A stretch of 64,000 nt of DNA from positions 7,467 through 71,466 of the forward strand of contig CAWBGT010000001.1 of the NCBI GenBank assembly GCA_963788375.1, given 5' to 3'. Numbering within the stretch: position 1 is the first letter of the stretch; each line of letters opens with the position of its first letter. Made by a program: the position numbers and the translations under genes. Shown piece after piece: positions 2,173-45,619 of the stretch. Source of the DNA: an uncultured Chloroflexia bacterium. Its GTDB lineage: Bacteria > Chloroflexota > Limnocylindria > Limnocylindrales > CSP1-4. The notes beneath the pieces are model-generated. The model searched no databases. It had not been told where the DNA came from and worked only from the letters and a program-made list of their open reading frames with translations.

Positions 2173-3510
2173 TCAGCCGATCACGAACCACGCGACGTCG
2201 ACGTCCGAGGTGGCGTTTGCAGTCAGGTGGATCGTGATCGTGTTGTCGCCGGTGTCGCGGACGACGCGCGCGACGGTCGTTGCCCCGCCGGCGTTGCCCT
2301 GGAGCGTCGCCAGCACCTTGGCGGTGTTGGTGATGTTCACGCCGGGGCTGACGACCACGCTGCTCGATCCACTCTGGATGGTCGAAACGCCCGCGGTGCT
2401 GAAGTCCGCACGACCCGTGACCCGGAGGGCGATGGCGAAGTCATCGGTCGGGACCTCGAACGACCCCGCAACGCCGTAGGCGCCCGTCGCCGTCCCGGCG
2501 ACCCCCACGCCCGTACCGTGCGTCGCCGAGCCCCACACGCCGGTTCCGTCGTCGCCTGTTGACGTTCCACGCACGCCGACGCCGGTGCTGGAGCCGTCAG
2601 TCCCCCGCACGCCCGTCCCCTGGGTGGCGCCGGCGGACACGCCGTGGACGCCGATGCCGCCGGTTGCCCGGACAGACTCCCCACGGGCCCCGGTGCCCTC
2701 GAAGGAATAGGCGGACACACCATTGCCGTCAACGTCCTGGCTGATGCCGGACACCCCGTCCCGGCCGAAGCCCCGGATCCCGATTCCGTTGGGATGGTAG
2801 GCCCGGCCGTACACCCCGAAGCCGCCGTCGCCCTCCGACTCGCCGTACACGCCGACGTTCACGGACGTGGTGCGAGATGCCCGACCCTTGACACCGATCC
2901 CGGTCTCGCTGCTCGCCGTGCCCAGAACGCCAATCGTGGAACCCGTCGTCGCAGATACATGGCCAGAGACGCCGATGCCCGCGGTACTGGCCGACTGACC
3001 GTGCACACCGCGGGCGTCACCCGTCGTCGCGGTTGCAACTCCCAGTGCGCCACGTCCGGCCGTCCCCGTGCTGGTGCCGCTCACCCCGCGCCCGGGTCCG
3101 ACGCCATAGACGCCGGCGCCGCTGGGCGCATTCGTCTGGCCCCGGACGCCCGCCGGTGTGCCGCTCGACGCGGTCGCCATGCCAACGACGCCGTTGCCGT
3201 TGGAATCGGCGGTCTCGCCCTGGATTCCGGTGGCGTTGCCCGAGTTGGTGGTGGTTCTTGCCCGGAATGCGGGCGTGTCCGACGACGAGATGAAGGTGGT
3301 GTTGGAGCCCGTGTGGGACTTGCCGACCTTGACCGCGTCACCGTTTGCGGCCGAGACGGGAAGCGGACGGCCCAGCACGCCCGCTGCAAGGCCCGCCACG
3401 CCGCCAATGGCGCCGACCAGGATCGCGCGTCGCGTGCGGGGCGATACGGATGCCTCCGGGGACGCGGCGGGAACCGGGGTCTCGTCATTCGCGGGGAGCG
3501 AAACGGACAT
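2173..3510 (-). CDS. Tat-signal secreted glycine-rich tandem-repeat protein (G-V-x-G-x-S/T repeats) with distinct C-terminal domain
   Basis: ORF 2173..3828 minus; chosen start MSVSLPANDE (codon 107) is preceded by GGGGAGG RBS. The twin-arginine motif TRRAILVGAIGGVAGLAAG follows. About 300 aa of GVxGxSxxxxG-type repeats. Confidence 0.6.
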   Translation of the reverse strand: MSVSLPANDETPVPAASPEASVSPRTRRAILVGAIGGVAGLAAGVLGRPLPVSAANGDAVKVGKSHTGSNTTFISSSDTPAFRARTTTNSGNATGIQGETADSNGNGVVGMATASSGTPAGVRGQTNAPSGAGVYGVGPGRGVSGTSTGTAGRGALGVATATTGDARGVHGQSASTAGIGVSGHVSATTGSTIGVLGTASSETGIGVKGRASRTTSVNVGVYGESEGDGGFGVYGRAYHPNGIGIRGFGRDGVSGISQDVDGNGVSAYSFEGTGARGESVRATGGIGVHGVSAGATQGTGVRGTDGSSTGVGVRGTSTGDDGTGVWGSATHGTGVGVAGTATGAYGVAGSFEVPTDDFAIALRVTGRADFSTAGVSTIQSGSSSVVVSPGVNITNTAKVLATLQGNAGGATTVARVVRDTGDNTITIHLTANATSDVDVAWFVIG

Positions 3511-3640
3511 GGGACACCTCCCCTCGACGGACGGCGCCTGGTTGCAGGCAGGAACGACACGCGCCCGCGCGAGTTCGGCGCAGCGTGCCAAATTCACGAC
3601 CCGGATGCAATACACGATCGTCGCGGCCGTGAGGGCCGCA

Positions 3641-3853
3641 TCACACGCCCTCGTCCATCTCCTCGAGGATCGCGTCGAAGTTGATGGCGGCGTCACACTC
3701 CTCGCAGATGGGAGGGTCCCAGTCGCCGGCTTCGGGCAGGTCCGTCCGGCCGCAGGTGGAGCAGGCGAACGGCAGGAGGGAGGCAGGGCCAATGACGGCG
3801 TCGACGGATGTCGTCTCGGGCTGGTCACGTCGCCGACGCCAGAAGAGGTTCAT
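3641..3853 (-). CDS. small CxxC...CxxC zinc-ribbon protein
   Basis: 70-aa ORF with CSTCGRTD...CEECDAAI, i.e. two CxxC pairs; acidic C-terminus. Sits 130 bp upstream of, and co-oriented with, the Gly-rich secreted protein gene. Confidence 0.4.
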   Translation of the reverse strand: MNLFWRRRRDQPETTSVDAVIGPASLLPFACSTCGRTDLPEAGDWDPPICEECDAAINFDAILEEMDEGV

Positions 3854-3928: not shown

Positions 3929-4855
3929 ATGCAGTACATCGACATCGAGGGAATGCGGCTCTCCCGCATCGGGCTGGGCACCTGGCAGTTCGGGAGCCGC
4001 GAGTGGGGGTACGGAGCCGACTATGCGAACGAGACCGCGCCCGCGCTGATCCGGAGGTCGCTCGAGCTCGGGATCACGATGCTCGATACCGCCGAGATCT
4101 ACGGACCCGGGCGTTCGGAGACGATCATCGGTGCGACGCTCGCGCAGCTGGTGGATGGCCAGCGCAACGGCCTGGTTGTCGCGACCAAGTTCATGCCGAT
4201 CGCCCCTGCGGAGCCGATCGTTGCCTGGCAGGTCGCCGGGTCCCGACGGCGGCTGGGTATGGACACCCTCGACCTGCTGTACGTGCACCAGAAGAACCCG
4301 TTCGTCTCGGCGCGGCGCATCATGCAGGCAGTCCGCCCTCTGGTCGAGGAGGGGCTGGTCCAGCATGCGGGGGTCTCGAACTTCTCGCTGGACCATTGGC
4401 AGGAAGCAGAGCGAGCCTTGCGCGCCCCGGTCGTGGCGAACCAGGTGCAGTTCAGCCTGGTGAGCCCGGCTCCGGCCGCCGATCTCGTGCCCTTCGCCGA
4501 GTCTGCCGGCCGGGTCGTGGTGGCGTACTCGCCCCTGTGCCAGGGCCTGCTCGCCGGGCGCACCGACTGGCCGAGTGCCGGGGGGTTCCGCCGTCCCCAG
4601 GGAATGCTGGCGAGTCGGAAGCCCGGAGTGGAGCCGTTGCGGGTGACGCTTGGGGAGATCGCGGCCGCCCACGGAGCGACCTCCGCGCAGGTGGCGCTGG
4701 CCTGGGTCCTCTCGCACCCGAACACGATCGCGATCCCGGGCGCGCGGACGGTCGAGCAGCTCGAGGAGAACGCCGCTGCGGTAGACCTGGTGCTCTCCGA
4801 CGAGGAGCTGGTCCGGTTGACGACGCTCTCGGAGGCGTTCTTCGGGCGCTCGTAG
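3929..4855 (+). CDS. aldo/keto reductase family oxidoreductase
   Basis: 308-aa ORF; LGTWQFG, MLDTAEIYGPGRSE and IPGARTVEQLEEN are hallmark AKR motifs. Confidence 0.9.
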   Translation: MQYIDIEGMRLSRIGLGTWQFGSREWGYGADYANETAPALIRRSLELGITMLDTAEIYGPGRSETIIGATLAQLVDGQRNGLVVATKFMPIAPAEPIVAWQVAGSRRRLGMDTLDLLYVHQKNPFVSARRIMQAVRPLVEEGLVQHAGVSNFSLDHWQEAERALRAPVVANQVQFSLVSPAPAADLVPFAESAGRVVVAYSPLCQGLLAGRTDWPSAGGFRRPQGMLASRKPGVEPLRVTLGEIAAAHGATSAQVALAWVLSHPNTIAIPGARTVEQLEENAAAVDLVLSDEELVRLTTLSEAFFGRS

Positions 4856-4879
4856 CGCGCGAGCGTGGCGCCGGTGTCG

Positions 4880-5115
4880 CTGAGCCTGCCATGCGCGTTG
4901 AGCCTGCCATGCGCGCCGGACCGCGTCCGGCCACGTGCCGCCCGGCGGCCGGCCCTGCGCCGGACCGCGTCGGGCCACGAGGCCGGCCACGTGCCGCCCG
5001 GCGGCCGGCCCTGCGCCGCACTCGGGCCACGTGCCGGCCACGTGCCGCCCGGCGGCCGGCCCTGCGCCGCACTCGGGCCGGGGGCCGCCCGGCGGCTGTG
5101 GCCGGCCGCGTGCGC
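4880..5115. repeat. GC-rich tandem repeats (17-bp tgagcctgccatgcgcg x2, then about 45-bp units containing ccacgtgccgcccggcggccggccctgcgccg x4)
   Basis: Direct reading of sequence; the same 19-mer ccacgtgccgcccggcggc recurs at about 4931, 4988, 5029 and 5118. Confidence 0.7.
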
Positions 5116-5502
5116 GGCCACGTGCCGCCCGGCGGCTGAACGATCGGGTGCGGGCCGGTCTGCGCCGCTTTGCGGCACATCCATCGGGCGGAGCAGCCTG
5201 CGAGCCGACCATCGCGCCGCTGAGCGGTCGAGAACGGCGGCTCGAGCGACGGTTGAGCCGGTGGACGGCGCGCCGGCCCCGCGTCGGGCCACTCGGGCCA
5301 CGTGCCGCCCGGCCGCCGGCCCCGCGCCGGCCCCGCGCCGCACTCGGGCCACGTGCCGCCCGGCGGCTGAACGATCGGGTGCGGGCTGGTCTGCGCCGCT
5401 TTGCGGCACATCCATCGGGCGGAGCAGCCTGCGAGCCGACCATCGCGCCGCTGAGCGGTCGAGAACGGCGGCTCGAGCGACGGTTGAGCCGGTGGACGGC
5501 GC
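5116..5502. repeat. two near-identical about 156-bp direct repeats (5116-5272 and 5347-5502) separated by about 75 bp
   Basis: Both copies read ggccacgtgccgcccggcggctgaacgatcgggtgcggg...gctcgagcgacggttgagccggtggacggcgcg, with a single g/t difference in cgggccggtc versus cgggctggtc. Confidence 0.85.
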
Positions 5503-5717
5503 GGCAAATGCCAGCGGTGCGCTGGACCGCGTCGAGCACGCTGCACCGCGGCGCGGCGGATGCCGGCGGTCGGCTACGGCGCGCCGACCCCCACGGCGCG
5601 GCGGCCCTCGCGGCGCGGCGGCTGAGGTCGGCTACGGCGCGGCGTGCCGGCCCAGATGTCAGTCCCAGCAACGCGAGACGTAAGCCCCAGCGAACCGTCA
5701 GCGACCAGGATGGGCCG

Positions 5718-6374
5718 ATGACGGCTCGACAGCGACCAGGAGATCAAGGCGCCGCCGATGCTCGCCGTCTTGGCGCCGAGCTATGCCGCGACATCGGGGA
5801 TGCCCGGCGAGGTCTTGGGCTCAGCCAACGCCTGGTGTCCGCCCGAGCCGGGATGTCACCTTCGCAGTACGGGCGGCTCGAGCGCGGTGACCTTAGCTAT
5901 CCATCGCTCAACCAGCTCTGCCGTGCGTGTCGCGCCGTCGGGATGGAGCCGGCCCTCAGGGCCTACCCGTCAGGCGAGCCCATCCGAGATGCCGCGCAGC
6001 TCGCGCTGCTCGCTCGCTTCGAGAGCCTGCTCGTGGCGCCCCTCCGCGTGCGCCGCGAGGTCCCACTGCCGGTCGTCGGCGACCGACGAGCGTGGGACGC
6101 GCGGGTCAGCGACGGCACGGCCAACGCCTCGATCGAAGGAGAGTCGCGCATTCACGACGCTCAGGCGCTCGCCCGGCGCATCGAGCTCAAGTCGCGCGAC
6201 GACCCGAGTGCCGGTGCCGTCATCCTGGTTGTCAACGACACAGCACACAATCGGCGGATCCTCTCGGAACACCGCGAGGCCCTGCGTGGTCAGTTCCCTC
6301 TCGATGGCGCCGCCATCGCCCGGGCACTGCGCCGAGGACGGGTTCCGGATGTGAGTGGGATCATCGTGCTGTGA
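5718..6374 (+). CDS. XRE-family helix-turn-helix protein with about 150-aa C-terminal domain of unknown function (paralog of the 25877..26617 gene)
   Basis: In-frame ATG at 5718 inside ORF 4935..6374; the upstream part of that ORF runs through repeats. HTH segment LGLSQRLVSARAGMSPSQYGRLERGDLSYPSLNQLCRACRAVGMEP. Confidence 0.6.
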   Translation: MTARQRPGDQGAADARRLGAELCRDIGDARRGLGLSQRLVSARAGMSPSQYGRLERGDLSYPSLNQLCRACRAVGMEPALRAYPSGEPIRDAAQLALLARFESLLVAPLRVRREVPLPVVGDRRAWDARVSDGTANASIEGESRIHDAQALARRIELKSRDDPSAGAVILVVNDTAHNRRILSEHREALRGQFPLDGAAIARALRRGRVPDVSGIIVL

Positions 6375-6540
6375 TCTCGGTCGTTCGTCGTGTTCCGCCC
6401 GCCCTTGGAATCCGCCAGTCGGCTCAACCGTCGGATGCAGTGCGACATCCGGCGCCGGCCGGCACATCTATCGCCTAGGGGCGCCGCGCCCACCAACAGA
6501 TGTGCCGCGGACAGGATGGAATCCAACTTCGAGCGACGGT

Positions 6541-6768
6541 TGGACCCCTGGGCGGCACGGAGGTCGCAATTTGGACCCCTGGGCGGCACGGAGGTCGCAA
6601 GGGGACCCCCTGGGCGGACGCCGTCGCGCCGAACCGGGCGTACCGCGCCGGATCTCGGCACGGAGGTCGCAAGGGGGACCCCCTGGGCGGACGCCGTCGC
6701 GCCGAACCGGGCGTACCGCGCCGGATCTCGGCACGGAGGTCGCAAGGGGGACCCCCTGGGCGGCGCAG
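6541..6768. repeat. tandem repeats: 30-bp unit x2 (ggacccctgggcggcacggaggtcgcaa), then 72-bp unit x2 carrying an identical 39-bp insert, then a partial unit
   Basis: Direct reading. The inserts are identical, so this is a tandem duplication and not a spacer array. Confidence 0.8.
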
Positions 6769-6858
6769 CCAGTACCGCGAACTCCGGGCCGGTTGGCATT
6801 GTTGGTAGGGCAGCATCGGCCCCTGTCGGGCGACGATCCGGCGGCCGACACTCGCGGC

Positions 6859-7401
6859 ATGAGCTTGGATCCGCGTACCCAGGTCGAGGCACCTGTCCGG
6901 GTGGCTCTCACCGGCCTCATGGGCCGCGGCCTCGCGCTGGTGGGAGCTGTCGCGTTGCTCGCCCTGTGGCCCATGGCCGCCAAGCCCGAGGCGGCAATCT
7001 GCGACGCCATCGCGTGCCTCGCAGTCGCGGTCCTGGTGGGCTATGCCGCGGTCATCCGGGTCTCCCAGCGCATCGGCAGCCGTCCCGCGCCCGAGGCTCG
7101 TGAGCGGGCATGGGAACGGGCGAGGGAGATCGATAACGACGATGCCTCGCTGGGCCTGCTCGTGGCCGGCTGGGTGCCGGTGGGCCTGCTGCTCGCGATG
7201 GGTCTCCTGATCTGGCCGCACCTCACGGACCGGAATCCGGCCCTCGCGGCCGCCTGGGTGGTGTTCGGCCTGCCCCCGGTCCTTCTGGCCTGGATGCTGG
7301 CCACCACGACCTGGCTTGACGCCTGTCGCGACGACCTCGCCCGCGCCGAGGAGGAGTCCGACACGCGGCTCCGCCACTACTGGGCGAACGTGGGGCATTG
7401 A
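6859..7401 (+). CDS. hypothetical membrane protein (4 predicted TM helices)
   Basis: First ATG after the repeat block in ORF 6355..7401. Hydrophobic segments LALVGAVALLALWP, CLAVAVLVGYAAVI, LLVAGWVPVGLLLAMGLLIWP and AAAWVVFGLPPVLLAWMLA. Confidence 0.5.
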   Translation: MSLDPRTQVEAPVRVALTGLMGRGLALVGAVALLALWPMAAKPEAAICDAIACLAVAVLVGYAAVIRVSQRIGSRPAPEARERAWERAREIDNDDASLGLLVAGWVPVGLLLAMGLLIWPHLTDRNPALAAAWVVFGLPPVLLAWMLATTTWLDACRDDLARAEEESDTRLRHYWANVGH

Positions 7402-7481
7402 GGCCCGCCCGAGGAGACTGGCCCGGCACGATGTGACCGATGGGCACATCGCTCATAAGCCGCCCCTGTTAGCCTCATCTC

Positions 7482-9473
7482 GTGCCCTCCCTCGATCCCG
7501 CCGCCCTCCTCGCCGATCTTGACCCCGAGCAGCGCGAGGCGGTGCTCGCCACGGGCGGCCCGGTTGCGATCCTCGCGGGTGCCGGCAGCGGGAAGACACG
7601 GGTCATCAGCCGCAGAACCGCGTACGCGATCGCCACCAAGGTGGTTCCCGCGGACGAGGTGCTGGTCGTCACGTTCACGGACAAGGCCGCGAGCGAGATG
7701 GTGGGACGGCTGCGCGACCTCGGCCTGCGCGGGGTGACCGCGCGCACGTTCCACGCTCACGCCCTCAGCCAGCTGCGGTTCTACTGGCCGCTGCGCCACG
7801 ACGGCGAACCGCTGCCCGCGCTGCTGGACTCCAAGGCGCCGATCCTGGGCCGGCTGGCCCGCCAGCTCCCGGGCCACTACCGCTTCACGCCCGCCAAGGA
7901 CCTGGCCGACGAGATCGAGTGGGCGAAGTCGCGGCGCATCCTGCCGCCGGATTACGAGCGGCGAGCAGCGGACCGGGAGCCGCCCATTCCCGTCGACCTG
8001 TTCGTCGGGATCTATGGCGGCTACGAGCGCGCCAAGACCACGGCCGGCCGCATCGATTTCGACGACCTCCTGCTCGAGACCGTCGCGCTGCTCGAGACGG
8101 ACGAGGAGGCTTCGGAGACGATCCGCGCCCGCAAGCGCTGGTTCAGCGTGGACGAGTACCAGGACACGAACCCGCTCCAGGAGCGGCTCCTCGAGCTGTG
8201 GGTCGGCGACCGGCGGGACCTGTGCGTGGTTGGCGACGAGGACCAGACGATCTATGCGTTCACGGGTGCGTCGTCAGCCTTTCTCACCTCGTTTGCGGAC
8301 CGGTGGCAGGGCGCGACGGTGGTCTCGCTCGTGCGCAACTACCGCTCGACGCCCCAGGTCCTGGACCTGGCCAACCGGTTGATCGCGGCGGAGGGCCGCA
8401 CGAAGCGCCTCGTCCCGACCCGCGCCGCAGGTCCGGTCCCCATGATCTCCCGGCATCGGACGGCGGAGCTGGAGCTGGCAGCGCTGATCACGGCCATCGG
8501 CGAGCGGATCGCGGCGGGGACGGCCCCCGCGGAGGTCGCCGTCCTGGTCCGGATGAACGCCCAGCTGGCGCCGATCGAGGAGGCGCTGACCCGTGCGGGC
8601 ATCGCCTACCAGGTCCGCGGCACGCGCTTCTACGACCGGCCCGAGGTGCGCGCCGCGATCGCGAGCCTGCGGCGCCCCGCGATCGCGGCCAAGGGCCCCG
8701 ATCTCCCGGCAGCGATTCGGGCGCGCTGGACCGAGGCGGTGGGGTACGAGGAGGACGGGTCCCCGGATGGCGACGAGGCTCGCGAGCGCCAGGCTTCCCT
8801 GGAGACGCTGCTCGCGATCGTGGACGTGGTTGCCGAGGGGGACCTCGCGACTGACGCCTCGGTGGTCGTCGCCGAGCTTGAGCGTCGGGCCGCCCACGAG
8901 CGTGACGGCTCTGCCGATGGCGTCAACCTGCTCACCTACCATCGCGCCAAGGGTCTCGAATGGGACGCCGTGTTCCTGCCGTCGCTGGAAGAGGGGATTC
9001 TGCCGATCCGCCAGGCCAAGGACGACGACGCCGCGGTCGCCGAGGAGCGCCGGCTCCTCTACGTGGGGATCACGCGAGCCCGGGAGCACCTGGCCCTCTC
9101 GTGGGCCGAACGACGGGAGAACCGCGGCCGCGACGGGCGCCGTCAGCCCAGCCGGTTCCTGCTGGACCTGCGGCCGTCACCGGGGACGACGATCACGAAC
9201 CTTGCCGGGCCGCCCGCGGCCGAACGGATCCGGCGTCGCAGCGATTCGGACGATCCCGTGTTCGAGGCGCTGCGCGCCTGGCGCCTTGCCGTCGCGAGAG
9301 AGGAGGGAGTGCCGCCGTACGTCATCGCCCACGACGCGACGCTGCTGGCCATCGCCGAGACCCGGCCCCGGACGCCGGCGGGACTCCGACGGGTGAAGGG
9401 CATGGGGCCCGCCAAGCTGGACAGGTACGGCGACGGAATCCTCGCGGTCATCGAGGCGGCGCTGGCTGACTGA
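7482..9473 (+). CDS. UvrD/PcrA-family ATP-dependent DNA helicase with C-terminal HRDC domain
   Basis: 663-aa ORF. Walker A AGAGSGKTRV, motif VVTFTDKAASEM, Walker B DEYQDTN and motif LRNYRST. C-terminal DPVFEALRAWRLAVAREEGVPPYVIAHDATL is HRDC-like. Confidence 0.9.
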   Translation: MPSLDPAALLADLDPEQREAVLATGGPVAILAGAGSGKTRVISRRTAYAIATKVVPADEVLVVTFTDKAASEMVGRLRDLGLRGVTARTFHAHALSQLRFYWPLRHDGEPLPALLDSKAPILGRLARQLPGHYRFTPAKDLADEIEWAKSRRILPPDYERRAADREPPIPVDLFVGIYGGYERAKTTAGRIDFDDLLLETVALLETDEEASETIRARKRWFSVDEYQDTNPLQERLLELWVGDRRDLCVVGDEDQTIYAFTGASSAFLTSFADRWQGATVVSLVRNYRSTPQVLDLANRLIAAEGRTKRLVPTRAAGPVPMISRHRTAELELAALITAIGERIAAGTAPAEVAVLVRMNAQLAPIEEALTRAGIAYQVRGTRFYDRPEVRAAIASLRRPAIAAKGPDLPAAIRARWTEAVGYEEDGSPDGDEARERQASLETLLAIVDVVAEGDLATDASVVVAELERRAAHERDGSADGVNLLTYHRAKGLEWDAVFLPSLEEGILPIRQAKDDDAAVAEERRLLYVGITRAREHLALSWAERRENRGRDGRRQPSRFLLDLRPSPGTTITNLAGPPAAERIRRRSDSDDPVFEALRAWRLAVAREEGVPPYVIAHDATLLAIAETRPRTPAGLRRVKGMGPAKLDRYGDGILAVIEAALAD

Positions 9474-13791: not shown

Positions 13792-13926
13792 GGCCGCGTG
13801 ATGAACCGGGGGGCCGCGTGATGAACCGGGGGGCCGCGTGATGAACCCCGGGCCGCGTGATGAACCGGGGGGCCGCGTGATGAACCCCGGGCCGCGTGAT
13901 GAACCGGGGGGCCGCGTGATGAACGG
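13792..13926. repeat. tandem repeat, about 20-bp unit ggccgcgtgatgaaccgggg, about 7 copies
   Basis: Direct reading. Lies in the intergenic region between the ABC ATPase start (13470) and the ABC exporter stop (14323). Confidence 0.85.
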
Positions 13927-14077
13927 GGGCTGATTGCGCCGCCCACCGGTTCAACCGTCGGCTGAAGCCGCCAACGAGCCGCTCACCGGCACGTTGGGTG
14001 GTCCCAGGAGCCTCTGCACCCAACCGACGTGCCGCCAGGCGGCGCAAACCGGCTTGCACCCTACCGTTCCGCCGCCG

Positions 14078-14290
14078 GGCGGCGCACGCAACGGCGGCGC
14101 ACGCAACGGCGGCGCACGCAACGGCGGCGCACGCAACGGCGGCGCACGCAACGGCGGCGCACGCAACGGCGGCGCCGCAACGGCGGCGACGCGCGACGGC
14201 GGCGCACGCAACGGCGGCGCACGCAACGGCGGCGCACGCAGCGCGGGCGCACGCAACGGCGGCGCACGCAGCGCGGGCGCCCGCAACGCG
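14078..14290. repeat. tandem repeat, 15-bp unit ggcggcgcacgcaac, about 13-14 copies
   Basis: Direct reading. The copies are almost perfect, with variants ggcgccgcaac and gcgcgggcgcacgcaac. Confidence 0.85.
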
Positions 14291-25410: not shown

Positions 25411-25607
25411 CCCGGTTGGGCGCCCGTGGGGCCTCGCGCGCATGCCACGCGGCGGTTGGGCGCCCGTGGGGCCTCGCGCGCATGCCGCTCGGCGGTTGGG
25501 CGCCCGGGGGCCTCGCGCATGCCGCTCGGCGGTTGGGCGCCCGTGGGGCCTCGCGCGCATGCCGCTCGGCGGTTGGACGCCCGTGGGGCCTCGCGCGCAT
25601 GCCACGC
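25411..25607. repeat. tandem repeat, about 40-bp unit ggcggttgggcgcccgtggggcctcgcgcgcatgccgctc, about 5 copies
   Basis: Direct reading. Lies immediately upstream of the second HTH paralog. Confidence 0.85.
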
Positions 25608-25876
25608 AAGGAACCGTGAGCACCGCGTCGCGGACGTGAGCGGCGTGCACGGCCGGAGCACGAATGGCTGCGGAATCGGTCCCTCGCCCGCCGGGCCCTT
25701 GCTCGCGACGCACGAGCGTTGCGGGAGCGCTCGAAGACCTTGCGGCGTACGCACGGCCGCCAAGTTTCGGGCGGGCGCCTGGTCGCCGGGTCCCGGGCGG
25801 GCGCGTCCCGGGCGCACGGCTGCCGGGTCCCGGGCGGGCAAAGTCTGGGCGAACTGACGCCTGTCACGCTGGCCGC

Positions 25877-26617
25877 ATGGCCAGGACCAACCTCCAGATC
25901 CTTGCAGACGAGCATGCCGCCGAACTCCGGCGCGTCCTCGCACAGGACCTCCGACGCATGCGGGAGGACGCGGGCTGCACGCGGGTGGCCGTCGCGTCCC
26001 TTGCCGGCGTGGATCCGTCTCTGATCACGAGACTCGAGGCCCGGGACGTCCACCCGACACTCGAGACATACGCGCGCGTCGCAGCGGCACTGGGCGCCAA
26101 CCTCGCGACGAGGGTGTACCCGGCCACCGGGCCAAGCGTGCGGGACCGCCACCAGGTCCGCACCGCCGAGTGTCTCCTGGCGTCGCTTCACCCGCGCTGG
26201 CACGCGACGCCCGAGGCGGCCGTCCGTCATCCGGTCCGCGGCTGGGTGGATGTCGCCCTGCACGACCCGGCGGCCGCGCTGGTGGTTGCCACGGAGATCG
26301 AGTCGCTCCTCCGCCGGCTCGAGCAACTGCTCAGGTGGAGCCAGGAGAAGGCGGCGGCGCTGCCGTCCTCGGTGGCGTGGCCCTCGTGGTCGGCAGCGGG
26401 GCGACCGGCCATCTCCAGGCTCCTGGTCGTACGTTGGACGCGCCAGAACCGGGAGGTTGCCGGCGACGCCCGCAGGCTGCTGGCAGCCGCCTATCCAGCG
26501 GACCCGAGAGATGCACTCGATGCGATCACTGGAACGATGGCATGGCCAGGCCCGGCGCCGCTCTGGATGCGCCACGAGCGGTCCGGCGCCGGCGCCCTGC
26601 ATCCGTGGCGTCCGTGA
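25877..26617 (+). CDS. XRE-family helix-turn-helix protein with C-terminal domain of unknown function (paralog of 5718..6374)
   Basis: In-frame ATG at 25877 in ORF 25664..26617. HTH segment CTRVAVASLAGVDPSLITRLEARDVHPTLETYARVAAALGANL. The C-terminal region aligns loosely with the first paralog. Confidence 0.6.
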   Translation: MARTNLQILADEHAAELRRVLAQDLRRMREDAGCTRVAVASLAGVDPSLITRLEARDVHPTLETYARVAAALGANLATRVYPATGPSVRDRHQVRTAECLLASLHPRWHATPEAAVRHPVRGWVDVALHDPAAALVVATEIESLLRRLEQLLRWSQEKAAALPSSVAWPSWSAAGRPAISRLLVVRWTRQNREVAGDARRLLAAAYPADPRDALDAITGTMAWPGPAPLWMRHERSGAGALHPWRP

Positions 26618-26618
26618 T

Positions 26619-26693
26619 GCGACTGCCCCCTGGCGGCGACTGCCCCGTGGCGGCGACTGCCCCCTGGCGGCGACTGCCCCCTGGCGGCGACGG
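26619..26693. repeat. tandem repeat, 18-bp unit gcgactgccccctggcgg, about 4 copies
   Basis: Direct reading. Begins at the stop of the HTH gene. Confidence 0.75.
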
Positions 26694-26800
26694 CGTCACC
26701 AGGCGTTGCACGATCGGGTGCGTCCCGGTCGCGCCGCCCGCGTCATGCCCCCCGGCGCGACGCGCCCCGGCGCCACGCGCCTCGCGCCACCCGCGCCCGG

Positions 26801-44106: not shown

Positions 44107-44784
44107 GTGGGCGACATGGACCAGGCGCCGGACTCCACCGCGTCCGACGGGACGACGGCGTCCCACCGGACCGCGTCCGGCCCTTCGCGGCGCGAGCTGT
44201 GGGACGCCCGGCACGCCTCGCGGGCTCCCATCGAGGCGCATGAGGCTGACCCCACGCTGGTCGCGATCGCCGCGGACCTGCCGCCCGGGCGCGCCCTGGA
44301 CCTGGGCACCGGTGATGGGAGGAACGCCATCCACCTGGCCGCGAGCGGGTGGCGAGTGACGGCCGCGGACTTCTCGCAGGTCGCGCTCGAGCGTGCCTCC
44401 GCCTCCGCCGCCACGGCGGGCGTGGACGTCGGCTGGCGGCTGGAGGACCTCCTCACCTTTGAACCGGAGCGGGGCGGCTTCGACCTCGTGCTCCTGGTGT
44501 TCATCCACCTGCCCGGTCACGAGCGTCGTGCAGTCTATGCACGGGCCGCGGCAGCAGTGGCCCGGGGCGGGATTCTCCTGGTGGTCGGGCATGACCGGCT
44601 CAACCTGACTGGCGGCGTCGGTGGGCCGCAGGACCCGGACGTCCTGTTCGTGCCGACCGAGGTCGTCGCGGACCTGCCGGAGGGGTTTGTGGTGGTCCGT
44701 GCCGAAACGGTGCGCCGCGAAGCGGGCGGTGCGGGCGGTGCGGTCCCGATCGATGCCGTCGTGGTCGCGCGCCGGACGGTCTGA
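44107..44784 (+). CDS. class I SAM-dependent methyltransferase
   Basis: Motif I LDLGTGDGRNAIHLA and LLVVGHD within a Rossmann fold. Confidence 0.75.
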   Translation: MGDMDQAPDSTASDGTTASHRTASGPSRRELWDARHASRAPIEAHEADPTLVAIAADLPPGRALDLGTGDGRNAIHLAASGWRVTAADFSQVALERASASAATAGVDVGWRLEDLLTFEPERGGFDLVLLVFIHLPGHERRAVYARAAAAVARGGILLVVGHDRLNLTGGVGGPQDPDVLFVPTEVVADLPEGFVVVRAETVRREAGGAGGAVPIDAVVVARRTV

Positions 44785-44926
44785 CCCGGGCTGGGACCGC
44801 CACGGTCCTCCGTCGATCCTCCACGGACCCTTCACCGGGACTCCACGCGCAGCAACGAGGATTGTCAGCGGCACCGAGACTCGGGCCGCCGCCAGCCGGC
44901 ACCTGAACCTGCGGAACAAGACCATC

Positions 44927-45619
44927 ATGAGGCGTCTCGCCATCTCCCTGTCCGTCGCCGCCCTTACCGCCCTCGGGACGGTCGCGGCCGTCTCGGCCGC
45001 GGATCCGACGGCCGCTCCGACACCCGCGGCGACCGCGACCCCGGCGGCAACCCCGGCCACGGATCCGGCCCCGGCCACGGATCCGGCCCCGGCCACGGAT
45101 CCGGCCCCGGCCACGGATCCGGCCCCGGTGGTCAACGGTCCGGCGACCGGCACCATCTCGGGGATCCTCGGCCTCAGCCAGGCCGAGATCCAGCAGCTCC
45201 GTCTCGAGGGCAAGACGCTGGCCCAGATGGCGGCGGACAAGGGGATCGACCCGCAGCGCCTGGTCGATGCGCTCGCCGCACGATGGGGCGCACGAATCGA
45301 CGCTCGACTCGCTGCCGGTGCCATCACGGTCGACGAGGCCGCTGCGCTCAAGGCAAACGTGTCGGTCCAGGCCAAGGCCATGGTCAACCAGGCGGCCGCC
45401 GGCGGCATGCGCGGCGGTGCCGTGGGTGCCGGCCCGGGTGCCATGGGTGGCCACGGGGCGATGAATGGACAGGGGGCGATGAACGGGCGGGGCCAGAGTC
45501 GTGACGGCACGGCAGGCGGTGGCATGGGCGGCAGCATGGGCCGGCACGGCGCCCGTGCCGGCTCCGCAGCAGGGTCGGGGACCTGCCCACTGACCGCCAC
45601 GTCCGCGACGCACTCCTGA
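44927..45619 (+). CDS. secreted protein with (P-A-T-D-P-A) x4 repeat and Gly/Met/His-rich C-terminal tail
   Basis: ATG at 44927 gives signal peptide MRRLAISLSVAALTALGTVAAVSAA. 18-bp DNA repeat ggatccggccccggccac x4 at 45060-45130. Tail contains GGHGAMNGQGAMNG and GGMGGSMGRHG. Confidence 0.55.
   Translation: MRRLAISLSVAALTALGTVAAVSAADPTAAPTPAATATPAATPATDPAPATDPAPATDPAPATDPAPVVNGPATGTISGILGLSQAEIQQLRLEGKTLAQMAADKGIDPQRLVDALAARWGARIDARLAAGAITVDEAAALKANVSVQAKAMVNQAAAGGMRGGAVGAGPGAMGGHGAMNGQGAMNGRGQSRDGTAGGGMGGSMGRHGARAGSAAGSGTCPLTATSATHS

Follow-up and report, generated by a model that had tools for sequence, protein, structure and literature searches.

The 64-kb stretch of DNA analysed here (the window; 71.6% G+C) comes from an uncultured Chloroflexia bacterium, has its closest protein and DNA relatives among Limnocylindria-type Chloroflexota, and holds, at 4856-6858, an island of repeats that surrounds one gene. 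This gene, HTH1, stands between genes for an aldo/keto reductase (AKR) and a small membrane protein, and it encodes a helix-turn-helix (HTH) protein with a second, C-terminal domain. Together with the hairpin-forming palindromes on its two sides and the tandem arrays at their ends, it makes up a cassette with the layout terminal tandem repeats, palindrome, putative promoter boxes, gene, palindrome, terminal tandem repeats (Table 1). An initial annotation had described the island as repeat DNA around one gene, and the repeats that it listed were reproduced when the window was mapped with Tandem Repeats Finder and a repeat finder. Its two direct repeats of about 156 bp and 99% identity are present as 157-nt copies, and its 30/72-bp block as 31-bp and 73-bp units. 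The 17-bp unit was also recovered, but what had been reported as a 45-bp unit corresponds to units of 40-51 bp.

The organising element of the island is an imperfect palindrome of about 150 nt that forms a hairpin, here called family A. The description as a 156-bp direct repeat was thus incomplete: the repetition is real, but the element is a hairpin-forming palindrome with additional copies downstream of HTH1 and elsewhere in the window. Located by BLAST and a profile hidden Markov model (HMM), four family-A copies are found in the window, three on the forward strand around HTH1 and a solo copy on the reverse strand. Three of the four fold as one long hairpin, with minimum free energies (MFE) of -68 to -92 kcal/mol across the copies; the MFE structure of copy 3 is branched, and this copy is hairpin-like in its centroid structure only. 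In an alignment of ten copies, taken from three genomes, 78% of the cells are paired under the long-hairpin model, as compared to 32-46% with slid partners, and compensatory double changes are seen at 18 pairs of the 10-copy alignment versus 10.6 +/- 2.2 in shuffles. A three-hairpin alternative proposed by RNAalifold was set aside, because most individual copies fold as a single long hairpin and the slide control supports the latter. Searches of Rfam gave no match at gathering thresholds in the 64 kb, and none at E <= 1 in the interval 4800-6900.

The repeats do not encode protein. In the long open reading frames (ORFs) that cross them, the G+C content of the three codon positions is flat (0.79/0.80/0.80), as opposed to about 0.70/0.49/0.90 in the flanking genes and 0.79/0.55/0.75 in HTH1. 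These ORFs are therefore artefacts, as the initial annotation had held, and the alternative that the repeats are in-frame coding sequence fails. HTH1 is the sole gene in the island. Its third-position G+C content (GC3) of 0.75 lies below that of its neighbours (0.87-0.91), and that of its paralogue HTH2, described below, is intermediate (0.83). A scan of the island for sigma-70 promoters and intrinsic terminators returned nothing.

Sequence comparison shows that the tandem arrays repeat the ends of the hairpins. In the left block, the units of 40 and 51 bp include 20-33 nt from the start of the adjacent hairpin's 5' arm (alignments with z = 4.1 and 8.2); in the right block, the 31-bp unit is made up of the final 22 nt of copy 3's 3' arm and 9 flanking nt. 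At two orthologous loci, L005 and L007, the tandem units likewise copy hairpin termini. Duplication also extends to a larger scale: the degenerate spacer and hairpin copy 1 form a unit of about 231 nt that is itself tandemly duplicated, and 5047-5272 matches 5276-5503 at 88%, i.e. an approximately 230-nt tandem duplication of 'leader plus hairpin'. All strong non-coding tandem arrays of the window adjoin a hairpin/HTH module. They include the arrays on the two sides of the solo hairpin, next to which neither an HTH gene nor an HTH pseudogene is found. Two further solo family-A hairpins are present in the relative L004, at sites that are non-syntenic with that of the window's solo copy.

HTH1 is a genuine gene, as judged from Pfam and from its hundreds of full-length homologues, whose N-terminus is conserved. 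The initial annotation was right about its XRE-type HTH, but incomplete in seeing nothing else, as the protein also has a conserved, PD-(D/E)xK-like C-terminal domain. The HTH occupies residues ~20-80 (HTH_31, 35.5 bits with a cut-off of 27; HTH_3, 32.5 bits with a cut-off of 23), and its profile matches in the PDB include SinR, HigA, C.BclI, and C.AhdI. The C-terminal alpha/beta domain spans residues ~88-218 and was modelled alone, because PDB matches of the full-length model were dominated by the HTH. The AlphaFold (AF2) models have a predicted local distance difference test (pLDDT) score of 88 for the full-length protein and 92 for the C-terminal domain alone. The order of elements in the latter model, H-E-E-E-H-E, gives an alpha-beta-beta-beta-alpha-beta core as in restriction-endonuclease-like proteins. 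Almost all of its top 20 Foldseek matches in the PDB are PD-(D/E)xK nucleases, the named ones being Bax1, McrC, AF1548, XisH, YaeQ, Hjc, the R2 endonuclease, OkrAI, and BamHI, and the named matches among viral models (BFVD) are also endonuclease-like. At the level of predicted structure, modelling thus shows a PD-(D/E)xK nuclease-like fold. Residue D127 stands at the start of strand 2 and the motif E140-x-E142 on strand 3; these residues show no or almost no variation among 36 homologues and are kept in HTH2. The resulting D..ExE arrangement is the variant used by BamHI (D94/E111/E113). HTH1 may be a nuclease. No Y1_Tnp or other transposase or integrase family of Pfam or NCBIfam matches HTH1. 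The PADLOC defence models gave weak matches to the HTH domain only, and a search of IMG/VR viral contigs gave a single match, again restricted to the HTH domain, hence no link to phages. At 50% identity, the family defined by the C-terminal domain falls into 762 clusters, and almost all of its members share one architecture and a length of about 217 aa.

The association of this family with hairpins and arrays was examined at 55 homologous loci (L004-L058, 719 kb), obtained from a scan of one genome per species. Of these, 54 are from metagenome-assembled genomes (MAGs) of Limnocylindria-type Chloroflexota, with several paralogues per genome, and the cassette is specific to this lineage. The hairpin census covered the window and about 16 kb per homologous locus. 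To detect long palindromes, each sequence was compared by BLAST with its reverse complement; control windows were matched, and the threshold for association was >= 90 nt. A custom dynamic-programming scanner for hairpins was dropped because, in 72%-GC DNA, it proved excessively strict or else unable to discriminate, and a generic listing of inverted repeats was unusable, being swamped by chance matches at such a composition. Palindromes of at least 90 nt are found upstream of the gene in 26/48 loci and downstream in 13/53, versus 32 of 1268 control windows (2.5%), and of the 57 long palindromes in the 719 kb, 40 are no more than 700 nt away from the gene. The upstream hairpin ends at a median of 72 nt from the ATG (interquartile range 61-97). 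Tandem arrays occur upstream in 30/43 loci (14% of control windows), downstream in 20/43 (15%), and on both sides in 16/43, i.e. 37% versus 3.1%. Relative to matched control windows, palindromes are enriched 10- to 20-fold and two-sided repeats 12-fold. The proposal in the initial annotation that tandem repeats, an HTH gene, and tandem repeats form a recurring module, rather than random variable-number tandem repeats (VNTRs), is borne out by these figures. Tandem repeats cover 10-21% of the DNA within 500 nt of the gene, as opposed to a locus background of about 1.5%; counted over non-coding DNA, they cover 21% of the gene-adjacent fraction and 7.9% of the remainder. The coverage of about 8% away from the HTH genes, seen over 55 loci, seems high for bacteria and may be a trait of the lineage.

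In about 22 of some 50 loci, the upstream and downstream flanks share an element of approximately 150-190 nt, whose two copies may be in direct or inverted orientation to one another; every case examined folds into a long hairpin. Such pairs are 80-94% identical within L004, L032, L036, and L044. Across loci, similarity between hairpins is restricted to orthologous loci of close relatives. Likeness within a locus, combined with locus specificity, implies that both hairpins of any one gene are kept similar to each other, against rapid divergence in the family at large. L036 is an extreme case: arrays of one 81-bp unit, in about 6.6 copies each, lie to either side of the gene (7404-7938 and 8694-9238) and are 87-94% identical to each other.

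A second shared feature lies between the upstream hairpin and the gene. The bipartite box TAAGC-N6-GAACC that precedes HTH1 is a degenerate copy of a family-wide direct repeat, RTAAGY-N5-RTAAGY (11-nt period), which precedes almost all genes of the family and comprises three or four boxes in some loci. The more stringent pattern TAAGYN6TAAGY has six exact matches in 63 loci, all of them upstream of an HTH gene. They start 37-39 nt before the ATG in five cases and 59 nt before it in L032, and the box shows no excess of matches elsewhere in the window. The bipartite TAAGY box probably serves the family as promoter or operator.

The order AKR, cassette, small membrane protein, UvrD is conserved in the window and at L004, L005, L006, L007, and L066. 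Hairpins and arrays are present at all of these orthologous sites, although their sequences and unit lengths differ. Identity to the window's proteins in L004, L005, L006, L007, and L066, respectively, amounts to 83, 68, 68, 66, and 65% for HTH1; to 85, 73, 74, and 72% for AKR, which is not in the locus in L007; and to 82, 69, 73, 63, and 64% for the membrane protein. The identities of HTH1 track those of its neighbours, and the gene is therefore vertically inherited. The next most distant genome, L065, has an empty site, at which the AKR and membrane-protein genes are 98 nt apart (4403-4500) and the spacer contains no HTH gene, hairpin, or tandem repeat. Since all three are missing together, the whole cassette is one insertion/deletion unit. 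A conserved leader of about 55 nt (CATCGGCCCC ... GCCGACACT ... ATG) precedes the membrane-protein gene in seven genomes, including L065. Its presence at the empty site places it outside the cassette, whose right edge thus falls at about 6805 of the window. The leader itself could be a promoter or an element of the 5' untranslated region (UTR). In L066, a perfect 34-nt direct repeat (GCGGACGCGGGTAGCGATCGGGCCAACCGCCCCG; 3108-3141 and 4409-4442) bounds a cassette of 1301 nt and includes the stop codon of the upstream AKR gene; it resembles an att site or else a long duplication of the target. Of the flanking target-site duplications envisaged by the initial annotation, this is the only candidate, none being found at the other ~57 loci.

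The window contains a second member of the family, HTH2, which is a full-length paralogue with 30% identity to HTH1 (HTH_31, 41 bits; HTH_3, 32.1 bits). The initial annotation had pointed to this locus, at about 25411-26693, as nearly identical in architecture. The locus exists, but the proteins are only distantly related, the repeat units are unrelated, and no complete hairpin is present. Its gene order, GT87, HTH2, aminotransferase, is found in three other genomes. The two genes are therefore old paralogues, each in conserved synteny, and not products of a recent duplication, contrary to the suggestion of a duplicated module. The HTH2 orthologue L059 carries a single copy of the 40-bp unit that is repeated upstream of HTH2. 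In two lineages, with units of 40 and 77 bp, the arrays 5' of HTH2 end at one conserved boundary (..GTGCC/GGCACGCAAGGATTCGTG..), which suggests recurrent duplication at one site.

Table 1. Features of the HTH1 cassette, the solo hairpin and the HTH2 locus in the window, with related positions in homologous loci.
Feature	Position	Strand	Method or remark
Tandem repeat, 18 bp x1.9	4881-4915	+	Tandem Repeats Finder
Tandem repeat, 51 bp x2.9	4927-5079	+	Tandem Repeats Finder
Tandem repeat, 40 bp x2.9	5025-5138	+	Tandem Repeats Finder
Left tandem-repeat block (18-, 51-, and 40-bp units)	4881-5138	+	Repeat finders
Hairpin family A, copy 1, ~150-nt imperfect palindrome	5116-5272	+	BLAST, profile HMM, folding
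Degenerate repeat spacer between copies 1 and 2	5273-5346	+	
Hairpin family A, copy 2	5347-5503	+	157 nt, 99% identical to copy 1, spacing 231
Tandem repeat, 17 bp x2.8	5576-5622	+	Between hairpin and promoter region
Bipartite box TAAGC-N6-GAACC	5681-5696	+	Starts 37 nt 5' of ATG
HTH1 gene, 218 aa	5718-6374	+	Pfam, homologues
Hairpin family A, copy 3	6404-6566	+	Begins 30 nt past HTH1 stop codon
Right tandem-repeat block, 31 bp x2.5 and 73 bp x2.5	6540-6763	+	
Right boundary, conserved leader of membrane-protein gene (CATCGGCCCC...GCCGACACT)	6805-6858	+	
Tandem array, 20 bp x7, abutting solo hairpin	13792-13929	-	
Solo family-A hairpin between two ABC-transporter genes	13930-14090	-	74% identical to copy 1
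Tandem array, 15 bp x14	14078-14288	-	Repeats 5' terminus of solo hairpin
Tandem array, 40 bp x4.8, upstream of HTH2	25413-25603	+	
HTH2 gene, 246 aa	25877-26617	+	
Tandem array, 17 bp x4.3 (26619-26691), then weak family-A 5'-arm-like fragment (26694-26736)	26619-26736	+	
HTH2 array boundary	25590-25640; L059:2700-2740; L060:2640-2670; L061:2805-2830		
Exact TAAGYN6TAAGY matches	L015:235-250; L016:6397-6412; L019:2072-2087; L029:7964-7979; L032:421-436; L036:7964-7979		

Two other repetitive features of the window stand apart from these modules. A perfect 18-bp repeat (x4.3, 45051-45128) lies within the ORF 44621-45619 and encodes PATDPA repeats; the product is probably a secreted low-complexity protein and is unrelated to the hairpin modules. 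Directly upstream of the AKR gene, a 551-aa ORF on the reverse strand (2173-3828) is rich in Gly, Thr, and Ala and contains 'GxGV' repeats.

The known system that these cassettes most invite comparison with is that of the REPIN-RAYT pairs or 'REPtrons', in which hairpins made of REP (repetitive extragenic palindromic) doublets go together with a REP-associated tyrosine transposase (RAYT) (Bertels & Rainey; PMC3337134, PMC3116915). In both cases, a short, vertically inherited enzyme gene, in single copy per type, is flanked by hairpin-forming repeats of ~90-150 nt; each gene is tied to its own type of repeat, with several distinct gene/repeat pairs per genome; and the spacer of the repeat evolves fast while the hairpin is kept. 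Among the present loci, a locus-specific hairpin of ~150 nt on both flanks is seen at the ~22 of ~50 loci mentioned above, and inheritance of one copy per type is seen in the synteny of HTH1 across six genomes and of HTH2 across four. Membership in the REPIN-RAYT group itself was nevertheless rejected. The enzyme that defines the group is an IS200-like HUH/Y1 tyrosine transposase (PMC3337134), whereas the cassette protein joins an XRE-type HTH to a predicted PD-(D/E)xK-like domain, and neither Pfam nor NCBIfam finds an HUH/Y1 transposase in it. Further differences are that the ends of the cassette hairpins are reiterated into tandem arrays and that the host belongs to the Chloroflexota, not to the Proteobacteria. 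REPINs form dispersed populations of tens to hundreds of copies per genome; of the cassette hairpins, a few solo copies, near the gene, were seen in the window and the ~16 kb per locus. By analogy, the HTH/PD-(D/E)xK protein and its cognate hairpins may constitute a vertically kept, REPIN-RAYT-like system with a non-HUH enzyme, the best-supported reading, to which we assign a probability of roughly 0.45.

According to this REPIN-RAYT-like reading, the HTH of HTH1 would recognise the protein's own flanking palindromes as hairpin or cruciform DNA, and the nuclease-like domain would nick or cut at their bases. Repair and replication restart at the cut sites would then reiterate hairpin ends into tandem arrays, and the same process could keep the two hairpins of a gene alike via gene conversion or re-copying, and occasionally seed solo hairpins nearby. 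The cassette would have entered its site, or would be able to leave it, as one unit, and would now be inherited vertically as several old paralogues per genome. Weak structural similarity, without sequence homology, places the C-terminal domain in the same fold class as the Holliday-junction resolvase Hjc, Bax1, and XisH excision factors; extruded long palindromes would offer junction-like substrates. A number of observations weigh against this reading. The Foldseek matches are weak (E = 2e-3 to 0.8; template-modelling (TM) score 0.35-0.5), the third residue of the catalytic motif is E where D...(D/E)-x-K has K, and the C-terminal domain (~130 residues) has no match among Pfam, NCBIfam, and PADLOC profiles or PDB sequences. 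Within the 64 kb and the ~16 kb per locus, no dispersed population of hairpins, such as is the hallmark of REPINs, was seen: solo copies were found for family A only (three in ~80 kb), and no other locus has any within +/-8 kb. Metagenome contigs scanned for family-A hairpins with exact patterns yielded 0 matches, as these hairpins diverge too rapidly for such patterns. HTH2 has tandem repeats and no complete hairpin, its orthologues L059 and L061 are almost devoid of repeats (L060 has a 77-bp unit x4.6), tandem repeats are generally common in the non-coding DNA of these genomes, and a perfect flanking direct repeat is found in only one of ~58 loci.

The main rival explanation is that HTH1 is simply an autoregulated XRE transcription factor, whose C-terminal domain would serve, without catalysis, in oligomerisation or as a sensor. 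Operator or insulator function would then fall to the upstream palindrome together with the TAAGY boxes, the downstream palindrome would be a terminator-like barrier, and the arrays would be passive by-products of replication slippage at the long palindromes. The fixed position of the upstream hairpin, the restriction of the exact box to a near-fixed distance upstream of HTH genes, the vertical inheritance of these genes under purifying selection, and the frequency of tandem repeats throughout the non-coding DNA all agree with such a regulator, as does the HTH domain, which resembles those of autoregulators and of the controller (C) proteins of restriction-modification (R-M) systems. Indeed, in sequence and structure it is closest to XRE regulators including C.AhdI, C.BclI, and C.Esp1396I, and the likeness to R-M systems extends to the repeated boxes just 5' of the gene and to the restriction-endonuclease fold and D..ExE triad that the C-terminal domain shares with type II enzymes such as BamHI and OkrAI. 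Unlike in R-M systems, however, no methyltransferase gene is adjacent, both modules are fused in one 218-aa protein, and palindromes and minisatellites flank the gene. The triad is kept across paralogues at 24-30% identity, which is unexpected for a non-catalytic domain, and if the palindromes were independent operators and terminators, one would not expect them to stay alike at one gene while orthologous hairpins diverge beyond recognition. With solo hairpins that carry their own terminal arrays away from any HTH gene, and with the joint absence of hairpins, repeats, and gene at the empty site, we consider pure autoregulation rather unlikely. The hairpins might also act as RNA, either as structured small RNA genes or as UTR elements co-transcribed with the HTH gene, with the tandem repeats being incidental. 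The compensatory changes in the long hairpin fit this proposal, as do the 48 G-U pairs against 22 A-C mismatches that family A shows on the gene-sense strand. Yet Rfam provides no match, the 39 flanking hairpins show no strand preference (sense more stable in 14, antisense in 25), the relative orientation of upstream and downstream copies varies between loci, and solo copies occur on either strand. Since the promoter-like boxes lie between hairpin and ATG, the upstream hairpin would also fall outside the likely transcript, and an RNA function appears very improbable.

Another possibility is that the cassette is a small selfish mobile or integrative element, either similar to insertion sequences (IS) or miniature inverted-repeat transposable elements (MITEs) or of the att type, that became an old, immobile insertion. 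The protein would be its transposase or recombinase, the palindromes its ends, and the solo hairpins MITE-like derivatives or footprints. Occupied and empty sites, homologues in several different genomic contexts, solo hairpins at non-syntenic positions, and the atypical GC3 of HTH1 (neighbours ~0.9) all speak for mobility, and the repeat bounding the L066 cassette duplicates the 3' end of its target gene as att sites do. Elements with structured ends, such as IS200/IS605 with their subterminal hairpins and the ERIC, Correia, and Nezha-type MITEs, similarly include intergenic palindromes of ~100-200 nt, with solo copies away from the protein gene. However, the cassette lacks a recognised transposase or integrase, classical terminal inverted repeats, and near-identical copies within a genome. 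Each of its ends is a whole palindrome instead of a terminal-inverted-repeat arm, with a relative orientation that depends on the locus, and synteny is kept over deep divergence, with HTH1 diverging in step with AKR. As the flanking repeat is confined to one locus and the family is absent from viral contigs save for the HTH-only match, assignment to IS or MITEs was rejected, and a mobile cassette is considered improbable. The evidence on whether the module is 'regulatory or selfish', as the initial annotation put it, accordingly points both ways, towards an indel cassette on the one hand and towards long vertical inheritance on the other. Finally, the island might be put down to VNTRs that arose by chance or to an artefact of assembly in a GC-rich genome, since copy numbers of tandem units could be mis-assembled in a MAG and GC-rich DNA yields many chance inverted repeats. 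By their description, the intergenic arrays of 15-80 bp do resemble the MIRU-VNTR minisatellites of mycobacteria, where copy number and unit also vary among relatives in a high-GC genome, but the cassette arrays are anchored to the ends of long palindromes and tied to one gene family. An artefact, which the initial annotation had itself raised as an alternative, is made unlikely by the recurrence of the architecture in five further, independent MAGs at the orthologous site. Given also its recurrence at dozens of paralogous loci and the enrichment over control windows, this last explanation is scarcely credible.

A more far-reaching proposal can be built on the REPIN-RAYT-like reading, namely that these cassettes represent an undescribed class of hairpin repeats in which a PD-(D/E)xK-XRE protein replaces the HUH transposase, maintains, homogenises, and occasionally copies the palindromes, makes minisatellites at their ends, and persists as multiple vertically inherited paralogues across a class of soil Chloroflexota. 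The proposal in this full form is possible but doubtful. A survey of the literature yielded no relevant description of such repeats in Limnocylindria, of REPs in Chloroflexi, or of PDDEXK-HTH hairpin systems. If HTH1 merely is an autoregulated transcription factor, its description is still a useful annotation that defines the cassette, its promoter boxes, and a new family of hairpin repeats. If the protein acts on its flanking palindromes, the cassettes would amount to another, mechanistically independent way of leading the REPIN-RAYT lifestyle, in which a persistent repeat population passed on by vertical descent is tied to a single-copy enzyme; this lifestyle would then not be peculiar to HUH transposases or to Proteobacteria. 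Bacterial minisatellites would furthermore have a concrete, testable cause, in that hairpin ends are reiterated where an enzyme targets palindromes, and a family of at least 760 clusters, annotated only as 'helix-turn-helix transcriptional regulator' in an abundant uncultured soil lineage, would gain its first functional handle.

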